Shown here: piece after piece, positions 1 through 29,043 of the stretch | How positions within the stretch are numbered: position 1 is the first letter of the stretch | How the letters are laid out: every line of letters begins with the position of its first letter | Source of the DNA: a phage | Direction: 5' to 3' (one strand) | DNA length: 64,000 nt | Assembly (NCBI GenBank): GCA_011884725.1 | Contig: GCA_011884725.1_3919.1 | Position numbers and translations under genes: made by a program | The notes under the pieces: model-generated | Told to the model about the DNA's origin: nothing | Databases searched by the model: none | The model's input: only the letters and a program-made list of their open reading frames with translations

Positions 1-153
1 AAAAAACAGTATGGTAAGTGGTCTACACAGATAACTTTTAAGAAGAGGGTTTACTTCTTCGGCTACTATGACACTATTGATGAAGCAGCAGAGGTTGTAA
101 ATAGGGAACGCCAACGTTTACACAAAGAGTTTGCTAATAAAGGTGATGAATGA
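1..153 (+). CDS. C-terminal fragment of AP2-domain (homing-endonuclease-associated DNA-binding) protein; 5' end outside window
   Basis: In-frame translation ...KWSTQITFKKRVYFFGYYDTIDEAAEVVNRERQRLHKEF ends at TGA 151-153; YxGxFxTxEEA pattern typical of AP2 domains at C-termini of HNH/GIY-YIG homing endonucleases. Confidence 0.5.
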   Translation, partial: KKQYGKWSTQITFKKRVYFFGYYDTIDEAAEVVNRERQRLHKEFANKGDE

Positions 154-650
154 GAAAAATAAAAGGTTTTGGCAATTGCCCTGAATATGGACATTGGGTT
201 TCACTATGTGGTGAAGTTGACCCAGCAAAGCACTTTGGTTTTGTCTACCTAGTGTACTGCAAAAAGACTGGACAGTACTATTTGGGTAAGAAACAACTTA
301 ATAGTGTGACCAAAAGAAAAGTTGCTGGCAAGACTCGGAAGAAGGTAGTCACTAAGGAAAGTGATTGGATGACTTATGAGACTTCTTCTGAGTATATTAA
401 AAAAGATATTGAGAGCTTTGGAAAAGAATTTTTTGACTTTTACATTATTCAGACCTACTACACAAAAGGTGGCCTAGTCTATGGTGAAGCAAACCTTCAA
501 CATAAATTCGATGTAATGACAAAAAGGATTGACTCTAAGCTCAGACTCTTCTACAATGCCAATATTGCAGCAATTAAGTTTATTACTAAAGAAACTTATG
601 AAGATGCTGAAAAAAGAATCCATAAGGTAATGAAAGCAAACTGTGCTTGA
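150..650 (+). CDS. hypothetical protein, possible GIY-YIG-like endonuclease
   Basis: ORF track; N-terminal FVYLVY...GQYYLGKK resembles GIY-(10-11)-YIG spacing; ATG overlaps upstream stop (ATGA). Confidence 0.35.
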   Translation: MRKIKGFGNCPEYGHWVSLCGEVDPAKHFGFVYLVYCKKTGQYYLGKKQLNSVTKRKVAGKTRKKVVTKESDWMTYETSSEYIKKDIESFGKEFFDFYIIQTYYTKGGLVYGEANLQHKFDVMTKRIDSKLRLFYNANIAAIKFITKETYEDAEKRIHKVMKANCA

Positions 651-11948: not shown

Positions 11949-12219
11949 AGAAAAGTGGGAGATTTTACCATTAGTCAGTGAAGGAGGTAATGGTTGTGAA
12001 ATGTACATGATACGTGGTCATGTTCCAGAGCCAATTGCACTTGAGATGGTAAACAACTTTACAGATGGTTCTTACAAAGACTTAGGCGAACCAACTGTCA
12101 AGCAACAATGGGTTAAACCTGTACCAGACAGCACAGGTAACTGTAGTGTACTTTATCACGTTGTAGACCCTGCAAAATGCAAATCTGCAATGGCAGTAAC
12201 AAACGTAACTTTTGATTGA
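11941..12219 (+). CDS. hypothetical protein
   Basis: ORF track, 92 aa. Confidence 0.45.
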   Translation: MAKEKWEILPLVSEGGNGCEMYMIRGHVPEPIALEMVNNFTDGSYKDLGEPTVKQQWVKPVPDSTGNCSVLYHVVDPAKCKSAMAVTNVTFD

Positions 12220-12230
12220 GAGAGAAAACT

Positions 12231-13112
12231 ATGAAAACATCTATCCGTGTTACAGTTCATTCACCAACTAAAGGGACTCATGAAGAAGAGTTTAACATCG
12301 TCCAATTCCCTTCTGGTGAGATTGGTGGACACTTTTCGCCAGAGTTTGTTGATTTTACTGCTTATGCAGCATCATCCATCAGCAATGTGATTATGATTGT
12401 AAAAGGTTATGACAAGGACACATTGTTTGCTGTGGCACTTGCTAAAGAAGCAATTGATGATTTAATTCCTCATGATTATGCTTTAAAGACTGTCATCTTT
12501 TACTACTTACCAAATGCACGATATGACCGTCACATGTTTAAAGGTGACGCAGCAGCTTTAAAGGTTTTTGCTAAACAGATTAATGCAATGGGATTTGGCG
12601 CAGTCTGTGCAGTTGACCCTCACAGCTATGTACCAGATAACCTGTTTAACTGCTTCCAGAGTATTCCTCAAAAGGAAATTGCAGTCCACTATGCAAATGA
12701 CCCACTGGTTGATTACTTAGTAGCCCCAGATGCAGGTGCTGCTAAGAAGGTTGCAGAGACCGCTAAAGAGGTGGATAAACCATATATCACAATGTCTAAG
12801 GTGCGTAACCTTAAGACTGGTGAAATTACTGGTATGCGAATCCTTGATGATGTTGATTTGACAGATAAAACCGTCATGATTCTGGATGATATCTGTGATG
12901 GTGGTCGAACCTTCATAGAAGCAGCTAAACATCTTCGTGAAGCAGGTGCAAAACGTGTGGAACTCTATGTAACACACGGTATCTTCTCTAAAGATGTTGA
13001 AAACCTTCTTGACAATGGCATTGACCACATCTACACTACAAACTCTTTAGGGGAAGCTAAAGACCGTGGCTTAACACATTATGGTCAAGTTACTGTAGCA
13101 AACCTTGATTGA
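12231..13112 (+). CDS. ribose-phosphate pyrophosphokinase family protein (Prs-like; candidate ADP-ribose pyrophosphokinase Adps of NARP1)
   Basis: ATG 12231 (track start 12216 is a TTG); PRPP-binding motif MILDDICDGGRTF; adjacent to NAMPT-family gene. Confidence 0.75.
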   Translation: MKTSIRVTVHSPTKGTHEEEFNIVQFPSGEIGGHFSPEFVDFTAYAASSISNVIMIVKGYDKDTLFAVALAKEAIDDLIPHDYALKTVIFYYLPNARYDRHMFKGDAAALKVFAKQINAMGFGAVCAVDPHSYVPDNLFNCFQSIPQKEIAVHYANDPLVDYLVAPDAGAAKKVAETAKEVDKPYITMSKVRNLKTGEITGMRILDDVDLTDKTVMILDDICDGGRTFIEAAKHLREAGAKRVELYVTHGIFSKDVENLLDNGIDHIYTTNSLGEAKDRGLTHYGQVTVANLD

Positions 13113-13121
13113 AACTTTATA

Positions 13122-13142
13122 GGGGCTTAAAAGCCCCATTTT
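13122..13142 (+). terminator. terminator-like hairpin GGGGCT-TAAA-AGCCCC + ATTTT
   Basis: Direct read between Prs-like and NAMPT-like genes. Confidence 0.5.
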
Positions 13143-13157
13143 GAGAGAGATTAAAAG

Positions 13158-14939
13158 ATGACTAAATCACTTTATGCAGTACCAGCAGGTTTAAACGCAG
13201 ATGCTTACAAATCTGGTCATGTTTACCAGTACCCTAGTGCAACAGAGTACTTGATGTTCAACCTGACACCACGTAGTGACAAATGGTTTAACAGCCCCTT
13301 AGCAATTGATGGTGTAGTAGCTTTTGGTATTCAACGTTTCGTTAAAGATTACTTGATAGACCACTGGAACGCCACTTTCTTTGAACGTGATAAAAAAGAA
13401 GCCATTGATGAAATCTTAGAAGTCATGAATGGTGTTCTGGGTAAAGATGCTATCGGTCGAGAGCATTGGGAAGCACTTCACGACTTAGGCTATCTACCAG
13501 TTGAAGTATACGCTGTAGAAGAAGGTACAGTTGTTCCTATGCGTGTACCAATGATTGTCTTCCAGAACACTGTTTCAGGTTTCCATTGGGTAGCGGGATA
13601 TCTGGAAGATGCTTTCTCTGCTGAGATTTGGAAGGCTTGTACCATTGCAACTATTGCATTGCATTATAAACGCATCTGTAAGAAGTGGGCTGACCTTACT
13701 TGCGACAATGACTTACATTTACCTTATCAGTGCCATGACTTTGCTATGCGTGGTATGTCCGGCTTTACTGATGACGCATTTAACGCTGTAGGCCACTTAA
13801 CCAGCTTTAAAGGGACTGATAGCTTCCCTGCTGTATATACAGCTAAACGCATCTACGGACAGTCTTACCCAGTCTCTGATATTGGTGGTTCTGTACCAGC
13901 CACTGAACACTCTGTAATGTGTGCAAACATTGCTTGGGAAGGTGGTAATGAGTTGGTTGAAGAAGAAAGACGCTTTAAAGGTGAGTTGCAAACCTTCCGT
14001 CGCTTCTTAACAGAAACTTATCCAACTGGTATTGCAAGTGTTGTTTCAGACACTTATAACTTCTGGAGAACTGTGTCAGAAATCTTACCAGCACTCCGTA
14101 AAGAAATTATGGAACGTGATGGCAAACTGGTAATTCGTCCTGACTCTGGAGACCCTGTACACATTGTCACAGGTTATAAAGCAATCCACTTAGAGTGTGC
14201 TAAAAAGGCTTATTATGAGCACCTAAGCAATCTGGAAGCCAGTGACACAATGCTGAATGCTGTTCTGAACATGAAGCTTGAAAACATCAGTTATGGTATT
14301 GCTGGATGGCTACTGTCAGAAGGCTACGAAATGGTTGTTGACAGAGAAGACTTTGAAGTTGCTGATACAGTGATGTTGAAGAACGCTTATATGGTTGGTT
14401 CTGCAAACGTTGTAACACGCCCTGTAGCAGAGATTGATGGAGCTATTAAGACCTTGTATAACATCTTTGGAGGAACTATTAACTCTAAAGGTTTTAAGGT
14501 ACTGGATGAGCACATTGGCCTTATCTATGGCGACTCTATCACGTTGGAACGTGCAAACGAAATCCTGAAGCGTCTGTATGAAATGGGGTTTGCAAGCTCT
14601 AACGTGGTGTTTGGTGTGGGCTCTTACACTTACCAGTACATGACTCGTGACACCTTTGCATTTGCTGTCAAAGCAACTCTTGCAAGCATTGGTGGCAAAG
14701 AGATTATGCTTGCAAAAGACCCTAAAACAGATAGTGGTGTTAAGAAATCTGCCTTTGGTGGTGTAGCACCTATGTGGGATGGTGAGAATTTGAAAGCTGT
14801 AGATGGCTATGGATTCCAGAGCTTTGCAGATGCACTTGAACATCCAGCTTGTGCTTTACGTTTAGTCTTTAGCGACTCTGAGCAGTACGGTTACACAACT
14901 CTTGGTGATATTCGAAATAATATTGACAAGCAGCTTTAA
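13158..14939 (+). CDS. nicotinamide phosphoribosyltransferase family protein (NAMPT/NadV-like; candidate Namat of NARP1)
   Basis: 593 aa; segments match NAMPT signatures recalled from human NAMPT (DAYKSGHVYQYP, CHDFAMRGMSG, SFKGTDSF, VPATEHSV, VVSDTYNFW, IRPDSGDP). Confidence 0.8.
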   Translation: MTKSLYAVPAGLNADAYKSGHVYQYPSATEYLMFNLTPRSDKWFNSPLAIDGVVAFGIQRFVKDYLIDHWNATFFERDKKEAIDEILEVMNGVLGKDAIGREHWEALHDLGYLPVEVYAVEEGTVVPMRVPMIVFQNTVSGFHWVAGYLEDAFSAEIWKACTIATIALHYKRICKKWADLTCDNDLHLPYQCHDFAMRGMSGFTDDAFNAVGHLTSFKGTDSFPAVYTAKRIYGQSYPVSDIGGSVPATEHSVMCANIAWEGGNELVEEERRFKGELQTFRRFLTETYPTGIASVVSDTYNFWRTVSEILPALRKEIMERDGKLVIRPDSGDPVHIVTGYKAIHLECAKKAYYEHLSNLEASDTMLNAVLNMKLENISYGIAGWLLSEGYEMVVDREDFEVADTVMLKNAYMVGSANVVTRPVAEIDGAIKTLYNIFGGTINSKGFKVLDEHIGLIYGDSITLERANEILKRLYEMGFASSNVVFGVGSYTYQYMTRDTFAFAVKATLASIGGKEIMLAKDPKTDSGVKKSAFGGVAPMWDGENLKAVDGYGFQSFADALEHPACALRLVFSDSEQYGYTTLGDIRNNIDKQL

Positions 14940-20868: not shown

Positions 20869-20890
20869 GGTTAAGATACAGGCTCCTTCG

Positions 20891-20911
20891 GGAGCCTTTT
20901 TCATTTCAGGA
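20891..20911 (+). terminator. rho-independent terminator GGCTCC-TTCG-GGAGCC + TTTTT
   Basis: Direct read. Confidence 0.7.
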
Positions 20912-21431: not shown

Positions 21432-21697
21432 CAGAGAATGAAGATACTTTTTACGTAGAGGGTTACTTACTGTTACCACGACCAAAAGAAACTTATATGC
21501 GAATTGACTTCTTACCAACCATTATGGATAATGTGATGTGTCATATCTTTATGCAAGGTGTCACAGCACAGCTTAAGCACGTTGGTAAAGAGTGCAAAAT
21601 AAAGGTTGACACTCATCCAGAAATCAAAGAGAATCACTACACATGGTTCTTACCAGACTCTAAAGAAATCTTAGCAGTTCTCAAAACGAGGAAATGA
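21428..21697 (+). CDS. hypothetical protein
   Basis: ORF track. Confidence 0.45.
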   Translation: MTENEDTFYVEGYLLLPRPKETYMRIDFLPTIMDNVMCHIFMQGVTAQLKHVGKECKIKVDTHPEIKENHYTWFLPDSKEILAVLKTRK

Positions 21698-22008
21698 TTA
21701 TGCAATTCCAGCCAACAAATCGTGGATTTTCTTATGCAGAATTTAAAGATGCTAAAGGGGAAATTTGTACTTTACAAGAGAGTTCATCATATGAACCATG
21801 TATTTGGTTAGGTGCTAAAGAGGTCTCTGTTCAGTACCTAGATGGTGGCTGGAAAACACTTGATATCCCAGCATTAGTAGGCAAAGATTTTGTAGGTAAC
21901 CAAAGAATGAAACTCAACCAAGAACAGGTGAAAGAGTTATTGCCATACCTTCAGTACTTTGCTGAAAATGGTGAATTACCAACAGAGGAACTTACAAATG
22001 CAGATTAA
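21694..22008 (+). CDS. hypothetical protein
   Basis: ORF track; GAGGAA upstream. Confidence 0.5.
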   Translation: MIMQFQPTNRGFSYAEFKDAKGEICTLQESSSYEPCIWLGAKEVSVQYLDGGWKTLDIPALVGKDFVGNQRMKLNQEQVKELLPYLQYFAENGELPTEELTNAD

Positions 22009-22324
22009 TGGAAGAGACTTTGTAGCCGTTTACTACGAGAAAGATAAAGAAGTTGGCGTAGCACAAGTATCTTATGGTAATGGTAAGTGGTTGTATGGGA
22101 CAATCGCAGTAGTCGGAACAAGAAGTGATACAAAAACTTTTAAAGATTGTGTTGACCTTCTTGAAGAATCCATCCACAATCATTGGTGTCTGATATGGAT
22201 GACTGACAACGAAGTGATAGAACGCTTCAAAAAGATTGGTATCAACATTGATAGTATTGAGCATGTTGATTTATATGAGCTAACTGAGAAGGTAAACTAT
22301 GAAAGTAATACTAGCCAGAGATAA
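21998..22324 (+). CDS. hypothetical protein
   Basis: ATG 21998 with AGAGG upstream (track start 21959 is a TTG). Confidence 0.45.
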   Translation: MQINGRDFVAVYYEKDKEVGVAQVSYGNGKWLYGTIAVVGTRSDTKTFKDCVDLLEESIHNHWCLIWMTDNEVIERFKKIGINIDSIEHVDLYELTEKVNYESNTSQR

Positions 22325-22532
22325 AAAGACACGTAAGATTGTAAGTTCAGCAGTATTCAAAGGGAGACATGAAGTCGTCCCGTTTACAGGAGAAGATGTG
22401 TTAACTTACAAGAAGGTGATGAAACGTGAGTGCAGTAACCATTTCCGTGACTTCTTCTCTGAACCATTAGGAGACTTTAAAAGTCGCTGTGGTAAAGGCA
22501 TCATCACTCAAGAGGTAATTATTCATGGCTGA
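22299..22532 (+). CDS. hypothetical protein
   Basis: ORF track. Confidence 0.45.
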   Translation: MKVILARDKKTRKIVSSAVFKGRHEVVPFTGEDVLTYKKVMKRECSNHFRDFFSEPLGDFKSRCGKGIITQEVIIHG

Positions 22533-22686
22533 CTTCTGCAAAGACTGTGCTATCGAAATGTTCGGACGTGATACAGGTGACTTAAAAGGTCTTATCACTG
22601 AAGATGACTTTAAAGCTGGCTATGCAATGCCAGTAATCTGTGAAGGTTGTGGATGTATCTGGGTAGACCATGAGGGCAACGTGTAA
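22525..22686 (+). CDS. hypothetical small Cys-rich protein (53 aa, below ORF-track cutoff)
   Basis: ATG 22525; MADFCKDCAIEMFGR...VICEGCGCIW; stop 22684-22686. Confidence 0.35.
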   Translation: MADFCKDCAIEMFGRDTGDLKGLITEDDFKAGYAMPVICEGCGCIWVDHEGNV

Positions 22687-22724
22687 AACCTTCAGAAGAT
22701 AAAGAATCTTGGGAGAGATGTTAA

Positions 22725-23504
22725 ATGGGTATTGTAAAAGTTGTGAAAGGTAACTTACTAGCTGCCTTCAAAAACACAGACATTGAGTTAATTGCTCATG
22801 GTTGCAACTGCCGTAACCTCATGGGTGCTGGAATCGCTCAAAAAATTGCTAAGATTTTCCCAAAAGCTGAAGAAGCTGACCGGAAATTCCATAAAAAGTT
22901 TGGCTACAGCGCTCATGATATCGGATACCAGATGATTGGTGAGGTGTCACATGCTCGAACGGAGTATGGTTACATTTTTAACCTATATACACAGTTGGAT
23001 GTTGGGAAGTGTGCATCATACCGATACTTAGTGGAGTCACTAGAAAAACTCCGTAAATTTTGCTGGATGCACAACATTCGTAAGATTGGTTTACCCATGA
23101 TTGGTGCAGGTATCGGTGGTTTAGACGCACAAGCTGTGAAAAGCCTCATTAATAGCGTTATGTACAACGTTGATGTGTACCTATACGTCTATGATGAAGC
23201 AATGGCAACTGTAGTTACCCCTAAGTATGCCACCTCAGCACCACAATTCTATGATGGTGTCGTGCTAAGTGACGGTAAGTCTAACCATGTTACCCTCTAT
23301 CAGCTTGTTGATGGTAAGGTCGAGGCTAGTTACCCTCTGGTTAGTGAGATGGGTATGTGTAATAGTGAAATGTTCTCAATTGACCCGTTTGGTAGATACG
23401 AAGGGGTGTTCTTTGATAGCTACCCAGCAGCATACATCTACACAACAAATCAGGATGAAGTTCACTACTTGCTGTATTCTAAAAAGTTCAAATTCATAAA
23501 CTAA
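22725..23504 (+). CDS. macro-domain-like protein (possible ADP-ribose binding/processing)
   Basis: N-terminal VKGNLLAAFKNTDIELIAHGCNCRNLMGAGIAQKI resembles the macro-domain GD(I/L)...AIVNAAN...GGGV pattern; assignment is tentative. Confidence 0.4.
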   Translation: MGIVKVVKGNLLAAFKNTDIELIAHGCNCRNLMGAGIAQKIAKIFPKAEEADRKFHKKFGYSAHDIGYQMIGEVSHARTEYGYIFNLYTQLDVGKCASYRYLVESLEKLRKFCWMHNIRKIGLPMIGAGIGGLDAQAVKSLINSVMYNVDVYLYVYDEAMATVVTPKYATSAPQFYDGVVLSDGKSNHVTLYQLVDGKVEASYPLVSEMGMCNSEMFSIDPFGRYEGVFFDSYPAAYIYTTNQDEVHYLLYSKKFKFIN

Positions 23505-23537
23505 TTAGTGCTTCACAGCACCTATAATTAATCTAAG

Positions 23538-23584
23538 AAGGCCGCCTAACCCATTGAAAAATTTAAGGTAAGGCAGCCTTTTTC
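23538..23584 (+). terminator. terminator-like long hairpin AAGGCCGCCT...AGGCAGCCTT + TTT
   Basis: 10 bp arms with one mismatch, after the macro-domain gene. Confidence 0.4.
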
Positions 23585-23830
23585 ATTTTCAATTTGTGCA
23601 GGTAGCTGTATAGGTCTGCACAGGTGTCTCAAAAAATCTCATCGCCGGATAGAAAAATCATTTTCAAAACGTGCAGACTCCGCTCAGGTCGGGCAAGAAA
23701 AATCATTTTAGAATTGTGCAGGTAGGTTTTTATGGGGAGCCAGACCAACCCCTCTCCCCCTATTACTCCCCCTCTCCCCAAAAGTCAAGAGAAAAATTTG
23801 TAGCGGATTGAAAAATAATTCTTGATTTGT
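23580..23830 (+). repeat. four degenerate direct repeats (about 25 bp, ATTTT(C/A)AA...TGTGCAG core) plus CT-rich tract CCCCTCTCCCCCTATTACTCCCCCTCTCCCC
   Basis: Copies read at about 23583, 23653, 23697, 23807; only a probable antisense ORF here. Confidence 0.55.
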
Positions 23831-23932
23831 GTTCTGTTTTGTGGTAGTCGTGTGCGCACGTTTCATTACAGTTTTTCCAAAAATATTTTTAAAATTTTTC
23901 TTGACTCTTTGAACGGGGTTATCTAGTATTTG

Positions 23933-23992
23933 CATCAACGGGGAGGGAATGACCTTCCCCACTAAATAAAGTCCTAAACTGGAGATTCAAAA
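23933..23992 (+). repeat. type-A intergenic cassette: hairpin GGGGAGGGAATGACCTTCCCC plus conserved leader ...TAAAGTCCTAAACTGGAGATTCAAAA-ATG
   Basis: Direct read; hairpin 23940-23960; same cassette recurs at 25501-25552, 26352-26416, 27571-27640, 28712-28779 and degenerate at 29041-29109. Confidence 0.8.
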
Positions 23993-24376
23993 ATGGCATA
24001 CCGTGCACCTAAATTCATCAACAAAGACAACTTTCGCAACGCACTGGAGAAGTCACTTGATGAGAATTTTAAAGGTAACGTTATTGTTGTTCACTCATTT
24101 AATTTCAAGTATGATATCAATGGGAATAAAATCAACCATTACACGGCAACAATGCTAGATGGTACTCTTTCAAGTGAAAAAGCCATTTTACATGCACTTG
24201 CTGGACGTGGTAAAAACCTGATAAGATGCGATAAGAGACGTTATCAGGGTGGCGCATATGGTTACGATGATGCTGTTTATCATCTTGAAAATATGGGCTA
24301 TCAAGTAGAAAAAGCTGGAGTGTCTCAAATAATTGGTAGTGATGGTTACGTAACTATCTTCAAAATTAACAAATAA
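23993..24376 (+). CDS. hypothetical small protein (array gene 1)
   Basis: ORF track; conserved type-A cassette and GGAG-N9-ATG upstream. Confidence 0.55.
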   Translation: MAYRAPKFINKDNFRNALEKSLDENFKGNVIVVHSFNFKYDINGNKINHYTATMLDGTLSSEKAILHALAGRGKNLIRCDKRRYQGGAYGYDDAVYHLENMGYQVEKAGVSQIIGSDGYVTIFKINK

Positions 24377-24461
24377 AGTACTTTACAGGGGGCTTATAGT
24401 TCGATAAAGTAAGCCCCAGATAAAGAGCTTTACCACTAAATCCTAAATTGGAGATTCAAAA
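24377..24461 (+). repeat. type-B intergenic cassette: AAGTACTTTACA, hairpin GGGGCTTA...TAAGCCCC, then AGATAAAGAGCTTTACCACTAAATCCTAAA(C/T)TGGAGATTCAAAA-ATG
   Basis: Direct read; hairpin 24388-24417; recurs at 24757-24840, 25824-25910, 26619-26707 with variable loop sequence. Confidence 0.8.
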
Positions 24462-24752
24462 ATGGCTACTATCAAAAACGTTGTAATCCCTGTAAAAACT
24501 CGTGATGACGCTCGCATCATGGCGAAAAAGTTAGGCGGGAAAGTGGTTGACAACGGAAAACAATCTGCTGTAAGATGGGGTGTGAAGGCTGATAAACAGT
24601 TGAAGTTAAAAAATTCACCAATAAATCTTTTTACATGTGTAAACACTATCGGAAAGACAAATGTATACACGAAAAAGGCATATATTAGACGCGTAGCCTT
24701 AACATCTCCAACTCGTACAATGAGAAGTCATGCAAAGCTGAAAATTAACTGA
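24462..24752 (+). CDS. hypothetical small protein (array gene 2)
   Basis: ORF track; type-B cassette and GGAG leader upstream. Confidence 0.55.
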   Translation: MATIKNVVIPVKTRDDARIMAKKLGGKVVDNGKQSAVRWGVKADKQLKLKNSPINLFTCVNTIGKTNVYTKKAYIRRVALTSPTRTMRSHAKLKIN

Positions 24753-24840
24753 TAAAGTACTTTACAAGGGGCTTAAAAGTTGATACCTTAAGCCCCAGAT
24801 AAAGAGCTTTACCACTAAATCCTAAACTGGAGATTCAAAA

Positions 24841-25137
24841 ATGAAATTATCAAATAAAGTTCGTGAAAATCTAAGCAAATTACTCAACAAAATTGATTTC
24901 ATTGAAACATCAAGAAATAGCCATGATGTTATGGAATGGTTACACGGCAAAATAAAAGGTCGTCGTGTAGTGATTTGCTTATGGAATAGTTGCAGGGAGT
25001 ATAAAAAACCTGTATTGCAAGTCAATATCTATGATGATAATCTTAAAAGTCCTGTCAAATCTAAAAGCGATTTACTAGATTCTTATGAGATAACTGTAAA
25101 TGGCAAAGTGTCACGTAAAGAGGAAGCACCATGTTAA
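24841..25137 (+). CDS. hypothetical small protein (array gene 3)
   Basis: ORF track; type-B cassette upstream. Confidence 0.55.
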   Translation: MKLSNKVRENLSKLLNKIDFIETSRNSHDVMEWLHGKIKGRRVVICLWNSCREYKKPVLQVNIYDDNLKSPVKSKSDLLDSYEITVNGKVSRKEEAPC

Positions 25138-25463
25138 TGACTGGTATCACTGCAATCATTGCCATTTTCGCGCTCTATAAGGCATATAAAGCCTATAATC
25201 TAGCAAATAAGGCAATCACACAACAGGTTAGTAATAGCCTTGTAATGAGCTTTCTAGAGCGGTTGAGCGATGAACAATTAAAGCGGTTAGAAATGAGCTT
25301 CAGATTCAGGGCGAGAACTTATCAAATCAGCGACATTTTCAAAGATGATTTTCAATTAGTCGATGATTATAATTCTCTGATAAATGCTTTAAATATTAGT
25401 GACTTAAAAGACTATCATACTGTAATTGTTCAAGAGTTGAGCAAACGAAAACAAAACTGTTGA
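25131..25463 (+). CDS. hypothetical small membrane protein (array gene 4)
   Basis: ORF track; start overlaps upstream gene; hydrophobic N-terminus. Confidence 0.45.
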   Translation: MLMTGITAIIAIFALYKAYKAYNLANKAITQQVSNSLVMSFLERLSDEQLKRLEMSFRFRARTYQISDIFKDDFQLVDDYNSLINALNISDLKDYHTVIVQELSKRKQNC

Positions 25464-25488
25464 CACTGATTTTTAGATAGATTAAATT
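25460..25488 (+). promoter_or_regulatory. sigma70-like promoter TTGACA-17-TAAATT inside type-A cassette
   Basis: Hexamers read directly; an identical roughly 60 bp segment including this promoter recurs at 26324-26352. Confidence 0.5.
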
Positions 25489-25552
25489 ACACATCAACGG
25501 GGAGGGAATGACCTTCCCCACTAAGTAAAGTCCTTAAACTAGGAGATTCAAA

Positions 25553-25825
25553 ATGTATACTACTAACAACGGTCGCACTTTAAATGTCACTCTACGTCAC
25601 TATGTCGACGGTGTGATGCACTTTGAGGATTTACAGGCTGAGCAACATATCTTAAATTGGCAAGTCGCAGGACTCCAAAAAACTGCTACCGGATACGGCA
25701 AAAAGATTCCAACTAGCTGGAAAGTTCACTATGAAGGCCGTTTGCGCAGAATTTATCAGGATGTATGTAACAATAGCACATCAAGTTACATCATAGTAAA
25801 AGGTAAAAAACTGCATTTAGTATAA
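25553..25825 (+). CDS. hypothetical small protein (array gene 5)
   Basis: ORF track; type-A cassette with TTGACA-17-TAAATT promoter upstream. Confidence 0.55.
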   Translation: MYTTNNGRTLNVTLRHYVDGVMHFEDLQAEQHILNWQVAGLQKTATGYGKKIPTSWKVHYEGRLRRIYQDVCNNSTSSYIIVKGKKLHLV

Positions 25826-25910
25826 AGTACTTTACAGGGGGCTTATTAGTCTGTACAGTAAGCCCCAGATAAAGAGCTTTACCACTCAATCCTAAATTGG
25901 AGATTCTAAA

Positions 25911-26315
25911 ATGACTATTAATAATCGTGAGTTGTCAATCTTAAAAGCACGTTTAACCGTTAATCGAATCAATGTTATTACATCATCAGCACCGGATGAA
26001 ACATTGCACAACATTATCGGAAAGATTCAAAGCGTTATCTTAGACGTTGAAAACGTAAAAAACTCATTGGCTGACGTTGCAGCAGGTATCACGCTAGACG
26101 GTGCACAATATGAAATGGCCGACATGTTAGGCAAATCTAAGGTAATGAATAAAGAGTTAGACTTGAAAATGTTTAGATTTGCCGTGAAAGTGTGGCTATC
26201 TGTTGAGTATGATGCTAATTTTGCAATCGCTGATTTCTTTGCCACTTGGTTACAACGTAATTTGGCAAATCATGACTTTCGTGACATCTGCGACGCAATT
26301 TATGCAGAACTCTAA
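25911..26315 (+). CDS. hypothetical small protein (array gene 6)
   Basis: ORF track; type-B cassette upstream. Confidence 0.55.
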   Translation: MTINNRELSILKARLTVNRINVITSSAPDETLHNIIGKIQSVILDVENVKNSLADVAAGITLDGAQYEMADMLGKSKVMNKELDLKMFRFAVKVWLSVEYDANFAIADFFATWLQRNLANHDFRDICDAIYAEL

Positions 26316-26323
26316 AAATTTTA

Positions 26324-26352
26324 TTGACACTGATTTTTAGATAGATTAAATT
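26324..26352 (+). promoter_or_regulatory. sigma70-like promoter TTGACA-17-TAAATT (second copy)
   Basis: Same sequence as 25460-25488. Confidence 0.5.
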
Positions 26353-26416
26353 ACACATCAACGGGGAGGGAATGACCTTCCCCACTAAGTAAAGTCCTTA
26401 AACTAGGAGATTCAAA

Positions 26417-26614
26417 ATGGCTATTATCAACGGTTTAACCATTGAAACCACGCACATCAAAGACATTAAAGTTGGTGATGTAGTTCTTTCCCACGGCGTA
26501 GAAAAAACAGTCACTGCAAAGGGTATCAAAGATGATTCTTTCATGGGTAGAACTCTCTTCGGTGATTCTTATTGCTTAGGTTATCTTGCAGTTTTAAAAG
26601 TTGTCAAAAATTAA
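26417..26614 (+). CDS. hypothetical small protein (array gene 7)
   Basis: ORF track; type-A cassette with promoter upstream. Confidence 0.5.
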   Translation: MAIINGLTIETTHIKDIKVGDVVLSHGVEKTVTAKGIKDDSFMGRTLFGDSYCLGYLAVLKVVKN

Positions 26615-26707
26615 CTGATAAAGTACTTTACAAGGGGTTTATAGTTCGATAAAGTAAGCCCCAGATAAAGAGCTTTACCACTAAATCCTTAAACTAGGAG
26701 ATTCAAA

Positions 26708-27250
26708 ATGAAATGCTTTCACGGTACTACTCAAGAAAACTTTATCAACCTGATTAATAACGGTGATAAACCATCAGGTGTATGGAATTGTTCGGATATG
26801 GACGGCAATTTTTACGTGTACCCAGAAAATAAACTCTATGGTGATGATGAGGAAGAGATAGCATCGGAAGGTATCCAGCAAGCTCTAGGAAATGCCACTA
26901 TCACGGCAGCTTTTCAGATGAAAACTCAAAATATTGTTATCTTAGAACTTGACATTCCAGAGGATGAGCTAAATGATGATTATTCTTGTGATAACATGTC
27001 AAATATAGCAAGCTTTACAGAGTACTTTGATGTAAATTGGATTAAAAAGGTCTATACAACAGAGTTCAACGCTATGTATTCACCTTTTTGTCTCCCTTCA
27101 CTGGATAACCCAAATTTAAATTATCTTGATGAAACATTGGAGCTACTTGCTAAAAGTATCCAACAATCCGACAGTATTCAGGTTTTTTGTGACATCATGG
27201 ATACACTGACAGAAAACATTGTAGAGAGTGATTTAAAGGTCTTTTTCTAA
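26708..27250 (+). CDS. hypothetical acidic protein (array gene 8)
   Basis: ORF track; type-B cassette upstream. Confidence 0.55.
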   Translation: MKCFHGTTQENFINLINNGDKPSGVWNCSDMDGNFYVYPENKLYGDDEEEIASEGIQQALGNATITAAFQMKTQNIVILELDIPEDELNDDYSCDNMSNIASFTEYFDVNWIKKVYTTEFNAMYSPFCLPSLDNPNLNYLDETLELLAKSIQQSDSIQVFCDIMDTLTENIVESDLKVFF

Positions 27251-27316: not shown

Positions 27317-27550
27317 ATGCTTACAACCATTTATCTCATCCTTTCTATCTGTAGCGGTCATTCATGTGACTTTAAAGGGCTTGAAGAGTTTACAGGAAGT
27401 AAAGAAAATGCTATTCAGGTTTGCCAGATAGCAAGACAAGACTATCCCGCCAGTGATGATATACAATGCTACTTTAAGACAGAAGATGAAGAAGGAATCT
27501 ATTTCGACAGTGTTGATGGTCAATATGAAATTATCATTGAAAAAGACTAG
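27317..27550 (+). CDS. hypothetical small protein (array gene 9)
   Basis: ORF track; short hairpin 27285-27297 upstream. Confidence 0.45.
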   Translation: MLTTIYLILSICSGHSCDFKGLEEFTGSKENAIQVCQIARQDYPASDDIQCYFKTEDEEGIYFDSVDGQYEIIIEKD

Positions 27551-27640
27551 ACAAGCCTGATAAAAGTCTGTAAATTACACATCAACGGGGAGGGAATGAC
27601 CTTCCCCACTAAATAAAGTCCTAAACTGGAGATTCTAAAA

Positions 27641-27982
27641 ATGGCTTATGTAACCGTAATTACTGATAAAGAGAATTCATCTTGGTCAACTCAGGTTAGT
27701 GACAAGATGTCACCTATGCAGTGCCTAAAATACTTTGAGCAGTGGAATAAAGGCGAGGATGTAAGCCCATTTCAAGTGATGCAGGTTATCCATGTAGATA
27801 ACGAAGGGAATAAAACGGTTTTAAATAGTGAGTACTACGCAAGCCGTTTTGAAACTAGAAGTAAAACAATGAAGCTTTTACGTGAATCCGGTTATGCCCA
27901 TATCGCCGCGCTAATCTGGGATGACCTGCTAAAAAGTCAGCGTATCAGCTATGTAAAACCTGAAAAAATATTCATCAGTTAA
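27641..27982 (+). CDS. hypothetical small protein (array gene 10)
   Basis: ORF track; type-A cassette upstream. Confidence 0.55.
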   Translation: MAYVTVITDKENSSWSTQVSDKMSPMQCLKYFEQWNKGEDVSPFQVMQVIHVDNEGNKTVLNSEYYASRFETRSKTMKLLRESGYAHIAALIWDDLLKSQRISYVKPEKIFIS

Positions 27983-28183: not shown

Positions 28184-28714
28184 ATGAACAAGTTCAAAGC
28201 TATCAACTACATTCGCTCAAATAGTGTCATGTCTAAGCCTGTTAAGGATACCTACGAATTCCGTTGCAATGGTGAACACTTTGCTACCATCACCAAATCA
28301 AACAACGGGGCTTATTATATCCATCGTCGTAATGTTTCTACGGTTGTAGTTTCTAACTTTATGCAAGCTGTAGCGGAACTCCTCCCGCTCTTCTTAGAAA
28401 AGTATGCCGTACAGTGTGAAAGTGTTCGTGAATGCACTAAAACAGTGTTAAACGGTTATCGTATGGCTTACGAGCGCTCTTTAAAGAATCTCAATAAATA
28501 CTACAAAGCACCGGAAGGCACTTCATCCACAGCCTACGGGGTAGGGGGCTTCAATGTCAGCCTTTACGAAGTGGAAGAAATCGAGCTTTATGACCATCGC
28601 CCAAATGGTTACGCTAAGACACTGGGAGAGGGGTTAATGCTGAATATCAAGAACTTAGAAAAAACTTTAAGAGAAATTGAAAAAGATATTGACGAGACAA
28701 TCAAAAGTCTGTAA
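28184..28714 (+). CDS. hypothetical protein (array gene 11)
   Basis: ORF track; tandem TTGACA promoters at 28015-28043 and the conserved leader upstream. Confidence 0.55.
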   Translation: MNKFKAINYIRSNSVMSKPVKDTYEFRCNGEHFATITKSNNGAYYIHRRNVSTVVVSNFMQAVAELLPLFLEKYAVQCESVRECTKTVLNGYRMAYERSLKNLNKYYKAPEGTSSTAYGVGGFNVSLYEVEEIELYDHRPNGYAKTLGEGLMLNIKNLEKTLREIEKDIDETIKSL

Positions 28715-28779
28715 ATTATCAATCAACGGGGAGGGAATAACCTTCCCCACTAAGTAAAGTCCTAAACTGGAGATTCAAA

Positions 28780-29043
28780 ATGGAACACGTAGAACTGACC
28801 ACACTCTTACAAATCGCAACCGACAAGGAAGACGTAGCATTATTTCACCGTATAGAGAGTGATTTGTTCAATGGTGAAATCATCAAAGAATCTTACGAAG
28901 TTGTCGGATTCAAAGATGGTAAAGCATTTGGCTTTTTTGACCTCGACAAAAGCAAAGCGGTTACAAAGTACGATGTTCTATCTTGTGAGATTCTTACAAA
29001 ATACAACGAAAAAAGGCTTGCAACCTACGCCAACATGCAGTAA
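28780..29043 (+). CDS. hypothetical small protein (array gene 12)
   Basis: ORF track; type-A cassette upstream. Confidence 0.55.
   Translation: MEHVELTTLLQIATDKEDVALFHRIESDLFNGEIIKESYEVVGFKDGKAFGFFDLDKSKAVTKYDVLSCEILTKYNEKRLATYANMQ

Follow-up and report, generated by a model that had tools for sequence, protein, structure and literature searches.

What does a phage gain from a macro-domain protein encoded in its early region, and is this protein tied to the genes of nicotinamide adenine dinucleotide (NAD) metabolism found in the same region? The question is raised by the open reading frame (ORF) at positions 22725..23504 of a 64,000-nucleotide stretch of phage DNA (NCBI GenBank assembly GCA_011884725.1, contig GCA_011884725.1_3919.1; the whole stretch is referred to below as the window, and the product of this ORF as the window protein), for which a first-pass annotation made from the sequence alone had tentatively proposed an ADP-ribose-binding macro domain. 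The ORF exists exactly as annotated, a single frame of 259 amino acids on the plus strand with an ATG start and the stop codon included, and by both sequence comparison and modelled fold the macro-domain call for its product is genuine, far beyond chance. The window protein is a predicted Gln-type macrodomain hydrolase of the phage Tk.4 family with an extra orphan domain, and it is probably another phage counter-defence enzyme. Our best guess at its function, held tentatively, is that it reverses the thymidine ADP-ribosylation of DNA by DarT2. The features of the protein on which the argument draws are the following.

22725..23504, plus strand: coding sequence of the two-domain macro protein (ORF list; phrog_335 match over residues 1-258)
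22725..23219, plus strand: macro domain, residues 1-165 (Pfam, DarG hidden Markov models, AlphaFold2 model, Foldseek)
22797..22811, plus strand: motif H25-G-C-N28-C of loop 1 (AHGCNC), with H25, G26 and N28 invariant in 35 homologues
22980..22994, plus strand: motif N86-L-Y-T-Q90 (NLYTQ), with N86, L87 and Q90 invariant
23094..23126, plus strand: Gly-rich diphosphate-binding loop P124-M-I-G-A-G-I-G-G-L-D134, with P124, G127, G129, I130 and G132 invariant
23247..23501, plus strand: beta-rich C-terminal domain, residues 175-259, orphan fold

The Pfam Macro family (PF01661) matches residues 25-140 with 29.6 bits against a gathering cut-off of 22. The AlphaFold2 model, built on 35 homologues, has a predicted local distance difference test (pLDDT) of 92 and a predicted template modelling score (pTM) of 0.88, and displays a three-layer alpha/beta/alpha pattern. 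Compared by Foldseek, residues 1 to ~165 of the model match TARG1, DarG and Poa1p with an expectation value (E) of ~1e-9 and target-normalised template modelling (TM) scores of 0.77-0.86, the Foldseek probability being 1.00 for these three proteins and for BT1257. Sequence searches of the PDB match TARG1/OARD1, the DarG macrodomains (5M31, 5M3I), SCO6735 (5E3B), BT1257 and Poa1p, with E-values that drop to 3e-17 when the family profile is used; human TARG1/OARD1 (4J5S) and yeast Poa1p (6LFQ) are the closest solved structures by sequence and fold. The N-terminal peptide quoted in the first-pass annotation, VKGNLLAAFKNTDIELIAHGCNCRNLMGAGIAQKI, corresponds to residues 7-41 of the ORF, and the check proposed there, structure prediction followed by comparison with macro domains, returns a macro fold with the ADP-ribose-binding loop residues in place.

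The phage of the window is a Felix O1-like myovirus of the genus Felixounavirus. Positions 22000-24500 are 93% identical in nucleotides to Escherichia phage EcoM2 and match 245 phage records, a tblastn search with the macro protein gives matches in 2826 phage records, and a search among 5.8 billion proteins returned one 97%-identical protein and 33 further homologues. The EcoM2 orthologue EcoM2_00052 (97% amino acid identity) is annotated as 'phosphatase', and orthologues in other records are labelled 'macro domain-containing protein', 'Poa1p_like family' and 'high-affinity ADP-ribose binding module'. The macro assignment itself is not new, being already in public GenBank annotation; the new points are the extra domain and the divergent alleles, neither of them covered by the characterised relatives, of an enzyme type whose first descriptions from phages date from 2025-2026.

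Whether the macro domain is catalytic, and of which type, is indicated by the residues of its putative active site. Invariance, scored in the alignment of 35 homologues, holds for fifteen positions, among them H25, G26, N28, N86, L87, Q90, P124, G127, G129, I130 and G132. N28, G127, G129 and G132 align with the equivalent residues of DarG, TARG1 and SCO6735, in the predicted ADP-ribose-binding loops. Asn28 is, by alignment, the equivalent of the Asn mutated in DarG, SCO6735 (N27S) and PhiKZ AdfM (N23A), a mutation that lowers activity in DarG, in SCO6735 (PMC9411070) and in PhiKZ AdfM (PMC13309987), and His25 aligns with His23 of Poa1p. The position of the catalytic Lys is occupied by Gln90, which corresponds to K84 of TARG1 in the profile alignment and to K80 of DarG in the motif FPTK; BT1257 aligns as NMIGQ at the Gln motif. 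The catalytic Lys of the Lys-type ALC1-like hydrolases (TARG1, DarG2, PhiKZ AdfM) is absent, and since Gln90 aligns with the catalytic Lys of TARG1 and DarG the window protein is not a Lys-type enzyme. It carries the combination of Q90 and N28 that defines the Gln-type ALC1-like hydrolases, the SCO6735 type, where the equivalence of Gln90 and SCO6735 Gln85 rests on the TARG1 alignment together with the published statement that Gln85 corresponds to K84/K80 (PMC9411070).

Because the catalytic Lys of TARG1 and DarG is replaced by Gln90, the protein could also be a non-catalytic ADP-ribose binder, that is, a reader or sponge, as the label 'high-affinity ADP-ribose binding module' of one GenBank record would have it. 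We consider this very unlikely, given that SCO6735 with the same Gln is a fast hydrolase of ADP-ribosylated thymidine in which the Gln is essential, that T4 Tk.4 and the Adpp-like protein gp176 of Vibrio phage Dax carry the same Gln, and that the Adpp of Vibrio phage Gary is catalytically active. SCO6735 of Streptomyces coelicolor is an efficient eraser of thymidine-linked ADP-ribose in DNA and gives protection against DarT; the Q85A substitution abolishes its activity and N27S nearly does so, a water-mediated mechanism has been proposed for it, and it acts on DNA and protein substrates (PMC9411070). Judged from the aligned residues, the active-site make-up of the window protein fits a working hydrolase, not a dead binder. 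The likeness to SCO6735 lies in the ALC1-like macro class, in the Gln that replaces the catalytic Lys and in the supporting Asn; SCO6735 differs in being a bacterial housekeeping or stress protein without a C-terminal domain and in having a longer mobile loop with DNA-binding lysines, and the two proteins are only distantly related (E 8e-4 with the single sequence, 4e-12 with the profile). TARG1/OARD1 and Poa1p have the conserved His of the AH-C motif in common with the window protein. However, the Lys84/Asp125 dyad of TARG1 is absent from it, and in our reading of the alignment Poa1p has FTS where the family of the window protein has YTQ, and Ser30 of Poa1p is not conserved.

Among phage proteins the window protein belongs to phrog_335, which it matches over its full length with E 1.5e-84 (T4 Tk.4: E 1.3e-65) and which also takes in T4 Tk.4, PhiKZ gp104 and the macro protein of Vibrio phage Dax that is embedded in NARP1, a gene pair discussed below. 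T4 Tk.4 has the motifs AHGCNC, NLYTQ and PRIGAGIG, and the set in common with the window protein is AHGCNC, NLYTQ and P-IGAGIG; the two are ~33% identical over the macro domain, and tblastn reaches T4-like tk.4 loci with E ~1e-14. In the HIDEN-SEQ preprint of 2025, tk.4 is the single T4 gene needed on hosts with DarTG2, its deletion sensitises T4, and its product has been named AdfM (10.1101/2025.11.20.689424). Besides the PHROG and the identical motif set, the two proteins have in common that each is encoded in the early region of an E. coli myovirus. With its 155 residues, T4 Tk.4 consists of one domain, whereas the window protein has the extra C-terminal domain, a DarG-like GGLD ending of the loop and a higher score with the DarG model.

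DarG is the best match among curated models (NCBIfam E 2.5e-15, PADLOC E 2e-16), over residues 4-163 only. The window protein shares the fold of DarG2 and of PhiKZ gp104 AdfM (target-normalised TM 0.81-0.85), the loop-1 Asn is conserved, and loop 2 has the same length and GGLD ending as in M. tuberculosis DarG (PPLGVGNGGLDW) and PhiKZ AdfM; in DarG2, too, an N-terminal macro domain is followed by a second domain (5M31, 5M3I; PMC5179494). An identification as DarG itself was nevertheless rejected. The NCBIfam DarG model (NF048014), with a cut-off of 250 bits, scores the window protein at 56.6 bits with profile positions 2-153 of 338 covered (T4 Tk.4 30.3, Dax gp176 37.5 and PhiKZ AdfM 137.8 bits), Lys80 of DarG2 is replaced by Gln, and the C-terminal domains are unrelated. 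No darT partner was found either, the neighbours being small ORFs without Pfam domains and the map of EcoM2 having no annotated toxin. The GGLD ending and the DarG-model score lean towards a DarG-like role on DNA, but are suggestive only.

From these relationships we infer that an active ADP-ribosyl hydrolase would be made from the early gene region and would serve counter-defence, its most likely target being phage DNA with ADP-ribose put on thymidine by the host toxin DarT2. The macro domain would bind ADP-ribose, with Asn28 and Gln90 positioning the distal ribose and the Gly-rich loop holding the diphosphate. The bond between ribose and thymine would be cut with an activated water, as proposed for SCO6735, and replicable DNA would be restored. 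The C-terminal domain would add a second, non-catalytic contribution, for example by binding the toxin or another variable host protein like the second domain of DarG2.

The gene pair of NAD metabolism would fit a different substrate. The first-pass annotation had placed the macro gene in the same early region as a Prs-like and a NAMPT-like gene, and both of these are real, with the expected Pfam domains.

12216..13112, plus strand: Prs-like (Adps-like) ORF (Pfam Pribosyltran, Pribosyl_synth)
13158..14939, plus strand: NAMPT-like (Namat-like) ORF (Pfam NAPRTase, NAMPT_N)

Across 233 Felixounavirus records the nucleotide identity of the pair is 92-98%, and because the genes that served to define NARP1, genes 79-80 of Bas63, come from a Felixounavirus, we take the pair on well-grounded sequence evidence to be NARP1-type. 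In many relatives, including Felix O1, an HNH homing endonuclease sits between both genes, and their match to the pair is broken into two pieces with an HNH gene annotated; the window is without this insertion (junction 13112-13158). The macro gene does lie in the same region but not in the same operon: it starts 7.8 kb downstream of the pair, and in EcoM2 the interval holds 14 genes, including rIIA, rIIB, a polynucleotide kinase, spanins and small ORFs. The same gene order and spacing are found in Erwinia phage M7 (Kolesnikvirus), a distant member of the Ounavirinae. This layout is no test of functional coupling, because it is inherited with the whole genome backbone. The two functions suggested by the first-pass annotation, handling of ADP-ribose-derived metabolites or reversal of ADP-ribosylation, match the roles of the relatives Adpp and T4 Tk.4/AdfM, and its tie to the Prs/NAMPT pair has the shared early region as sole basis.

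Adpp of Vibrio phage Gary (KNV71_gp137) is a phosphatase of ADP-ribose-1''-phosphate (ADPR-1P) and belongs to NARP1-AP; its substrate is the product of the aRES defence, which Adpp defeats, conversion to ADP-ribose lets NARP1 rebuild NAD+, NARP1 alone cannot use ADPR-1P, and a macro gene is counted as Adpp when it lies within two genes of the Adps/Namat operon (10.64898/2026.01.28.702374). The window protein may be a distally encoded Adpp, which would dephosphorylate ADPR-1P, formed by RES-type NAD+ phosphorylases such as aRES, to ADP-ribose from which the phage NARP1 pair rebuilds NAD+, and which would make Felixounaviruses functionally NARP1-AP despite the non-adjacent genes. We regard this function as possible but on balance unlikely. 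The verified Adpp of phage Gary is in the same phage family, and Dax gp176, which lies between a Prs-like and a NAMPT-like gene and served as in-operon proxy for Gary Adpp in the sequence comparisons, is from the same PHROG, is 30% identical to the window protein and has His, Asn and Gln at the same motif positions. Such an enzyme would benefit a phage with NARP1, as NARP1 alone leaves ADPR-1P unused, and Felixounavirus and the distantly related Kolesnikvirus M7 both have the macro gene together with NARP1, arranged and oriented alike. The match of His25 to His23 of Poa1p is in line with this function, as are the terms 'phosphatase' and 'Poa1p_like' already used by GenBank annotators.

Wider support for a distal Adpp comes from other phages. 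We fetched 79 viral loci with their flanks, extracted the macro proteins, located nearby Prs-like and NAMPT-like genes, and aligned and clustered the macro domains. In several unrelated large phages, single-domain family members have a NAMPT-like or Prs-like gene at a distance of 0-3 kb; the loci concerned are L076, L078-L083, L080, L042 and L070, on IMG/VR contigs of 31-247 kb, with the NAMPT-like match of L042 ~9 kb away. At L078/L079 the macro gene begins 36 bp past the end of the NAMPT-like match.

The same survey also separates the window protein from these proteins. In NAD-gene-adjacent macros of six lineages (L076, L078/L079, L080, L081-L083, Dax), motif 1 ends in GIAP, the loop after the Gln is extended and GLAGGDW follows, a set of features that is our own observation on these six lineages and not a published definition; in the window protein the corresponding elements are GIAQ, a short loop and GIGGLD. 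Judging by sequence, GIAP, the long loop and GLAGGDW in the macros adjoining both NAD genes (L076, L078-L083, L080) may mark an Adpp subgroup. The Adpp-like proteins are, moreover, single-domain, whereas the window protein has two domains. Adpp is encoded between Adps and Namat, whereas the window gene, 14 genes downstream of its NARP1-type pair, is neither inside nor within two genes of Adps/Namat, and in T4-like phages the family persists although NARP1 is absent. When 58 macro domains were clustered by neighbour joining, the tree came out star-like, with the two-domain Felixounavirus clade apart from both T4 Tk.4 and Dax gp176, and an attempt to place the protein as AdfM or Adpp by phylogeny was abandoned on that ground.

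The reversal of DarT2 modification and the Adpp role are not mutually exclusive, because both substrates have their leaving group on C1'' of the distal ribose. One speculative possibility is that the same enzyme also clears ADPR-1P, silently upgrading NARP1 of all Felixounaviruses, including Bas63, to aRES resistance.

Another or a broader substrate is rather improbable in our estimate. It could be RNA or protein ADP-ribosylated by another host toxin, O-acetyl-ADP-ribose, an immune signal derived from ADP-ribose, or several substrates including both of the main candidates. Within one class, a macro domain frequently takes several 1''-linked substrates. Of the solved relatives, TARG1/OARD1 are the closest in sequence and have protein-linked ADP-ribose and O-acetyl-ADP-ribose as substrates, and SCO6735 accepts protein as well as DNA; on the other hand, such a role is not known for any characterised member of the phage family. 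Reversal of a modification made by a phage-encoded ADP-ribosyltransferase was also considered and discarded, the closely related EcoM2 genome having no such enzyme annotated.

A further line of evidence comes from the divergence of the gene within an otherwise conserved genome. By tblastn, the allele of the window is found at an amino acid identity of at least 90% in only 13 phage records, and the other ~245 full-length matches are 39-43% identical; two alleles that are ~41% identical to each other thus exist within genomes otherwise 90-95% identical. Compared with Salmonella phage Mushroom, the flanks have 89-94% nucleotide identity and similarity is essentially lost over 22868-23657, except in the glycine-loop region, while at the protein level residues 1-47 share 57% identity with the Mushroom allele, the remainder of the macro domain 47% and the C-terminal domain 25%. 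A clean recombination breakpoint within the gene was rejected: blastn gives 85.6% identity up to 22867, yet residues 1-47 are just 57% identical. The latter value places the start of divergence at or near the start codon. The NARP1 genes, unlike the macro gene, are uniformly conserved (92-98%). Such a cassette-like replacement would be typical of genes that engage variable host factors, and it appears easier to reconcile with a counter-defence factor that contacts proteins than with a phosphatase of a fixed metabolite; for a distal Adpp, allele divergence and a fast-evolving domain would be hard to explain with a small invariant metabolite as substrate and NARP1 itself conserved.

The C-terminal domain, of ~85-95 residues, is modelled with high confidence as six strands and one helix. 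It has no match to a Pfam family and no structural match in the PDB, and BFVD gave only the orthologous Felixounavirus protein. Its profile, run against 1.84 billion representative proteins, gives eight strong or moderate matches, six of them in fusion with a macro domain. P0035 and P0040, which make up the eight, are truncated calls of that fusion gene, and P0035, which had looked like a standalone C-domain protein, is one such call of the same allele. Throughout these profile matches the domain is always joined to this macro domain. All further matches are weak; they are to beta-propeller proteins of the PQQ/BamB and WD40 types and align with ~two blades. The best single propeller match has 19 bits and a per-domain E of at least 100 at library scale, the whole-protein E deriving from summed repeats, so that two propeller-like blades in the C-terminal domain are a faint hint in its sequence, not a finding; should the resemblance prove genuine, copies of the domain could form an oligomer like a propeller. 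A DNA mimic or a DNA binder acting through charge was dismissed, since net charge is not conserved between alleles.

Taken with the divergence of the alleles, the C-terminal domain allows a more specific, and speculative, version of the DarT2 reading to which we give a low probability: a two-module anti-DarT factor, in which the Gln-type macrodomain erases thymidine ADP-ribosylation and the unrelated, fast-diversifying C-terminal domain blocks the toxin or another immune protein, the alleles being matched to different variants of the host toxin. If true, this would be a phage-built functional analogue of full-length DarG2.

We thus place the reversal of DarT2 modification first, on the homology to Tk.4, on DarG as best model match and on the match of the Asn/Gln pair to SCO6735. 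GIAP, the long loop and GLAGGDW are missing and NARP1 is 14 genes away, the succession of a macro domain and a second domain parallels DarG2, and allele and C-domain divergence stands against a conserved NARP1. Several points weigh on the other side. The Asn/Gln pair and the conserved His are present in the Adpp-like Dax gp176 as well and do not discriminate between the functions, and the window protein is about equally far from T4 Tk.4 (33%) and from Dax gp176 (30%). Its C-terminal domain has no similarity to that of DarG, and the variable net charge of this domain is no help. The evidence on T4 AdfM is genetic and comes from a preprint (10.1101/2025.11.20.689424); in the literature we found no experiment on any Felixounavirus protein, and nothing relevant on Felixounavirus together with DarTG. 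The question has practical weight, as Felixounaviruses are widely used as therapy and biocontrol phages and NARP1 was discovered in the model phage Bas63. If it were known which of DarTG2 and aRES the macro protein defeats, or whether it defeats both, host range could be predicted better and it would become clear whether a third component is hidden in NARP1 phages, and the two-domain layout with allele replacement offers a concrete way to ask how phage 'eraser' enzymes gain specificity modules.

The macro gene is the last of a block of tightly packed small ORFs that follows a terminator-like site at 20880-20897, and it has its own expression signals.

22711..22717, plus strand: Shine-Dalgarno-like GGGAGAG, read from the sequence, 7 nucleotides 5' of the ATG
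23535..23594, plus strand: hairpin and U-run, likely an intrinsic terminator closing the gene block (RNA fold)

The strong hairpin, 3' of the stop codon, spans 23535-23583 and is followed by the U-run; its folding energy is -25.9 kcal/mol (z -3.85 against shuffles), and it was missed by a simple scan because the stem-loop is long and has internal loops. The neighbouring small ORFs matched no Pfam domains. Directly 5' of the macro gene, the ORF at 22525-22686 (plus strand, 53 amino acids) is Cys-rich, with a zinc-ribbon-like CxxC ... CxxCxC pattern and no Pfam match; Salmonella phage Mushroom also has an ORF at this position (gp096). The ORF at 21694-22008 (plus strand, 104 amino acids, again no Pfam match) falls within a gap of the nucleotide alignment to Mushroom (21705-21997 unmatched), and because of this gap it is taken as an accessory ORF, either inserted or deleted within the Felixounaviruses.

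Downstream of the macro gene, two families of direct repeats of ~105 nucleotides fill the spacers between small genes.

23901-24008, 25460-25567, 26324-26431, 27548-27655, 28689-28796: direct repeat family D1
24362-24464, 24741-24843, 25811-25913, 26607-26709: direct repeat family D2

The first D1 copy contains a sigma-70-like TTGACT-17-TAGTAT at 23901-23929, and the D1 and D2 repeats resemble promoter or regulatory modules present in several copies. On the minus strand, the 'ORFs' starting with MGKVIPSPLM (23708..23962, 25396..25521, 26215..26385) are by-products of these repeats. Near the beginning of the window, the ORF at 150-650 (plus strand, 166 amino acids) carries a SegE-type GIY-YIG homing endonuclease domain (PF19835, E 9e-27).

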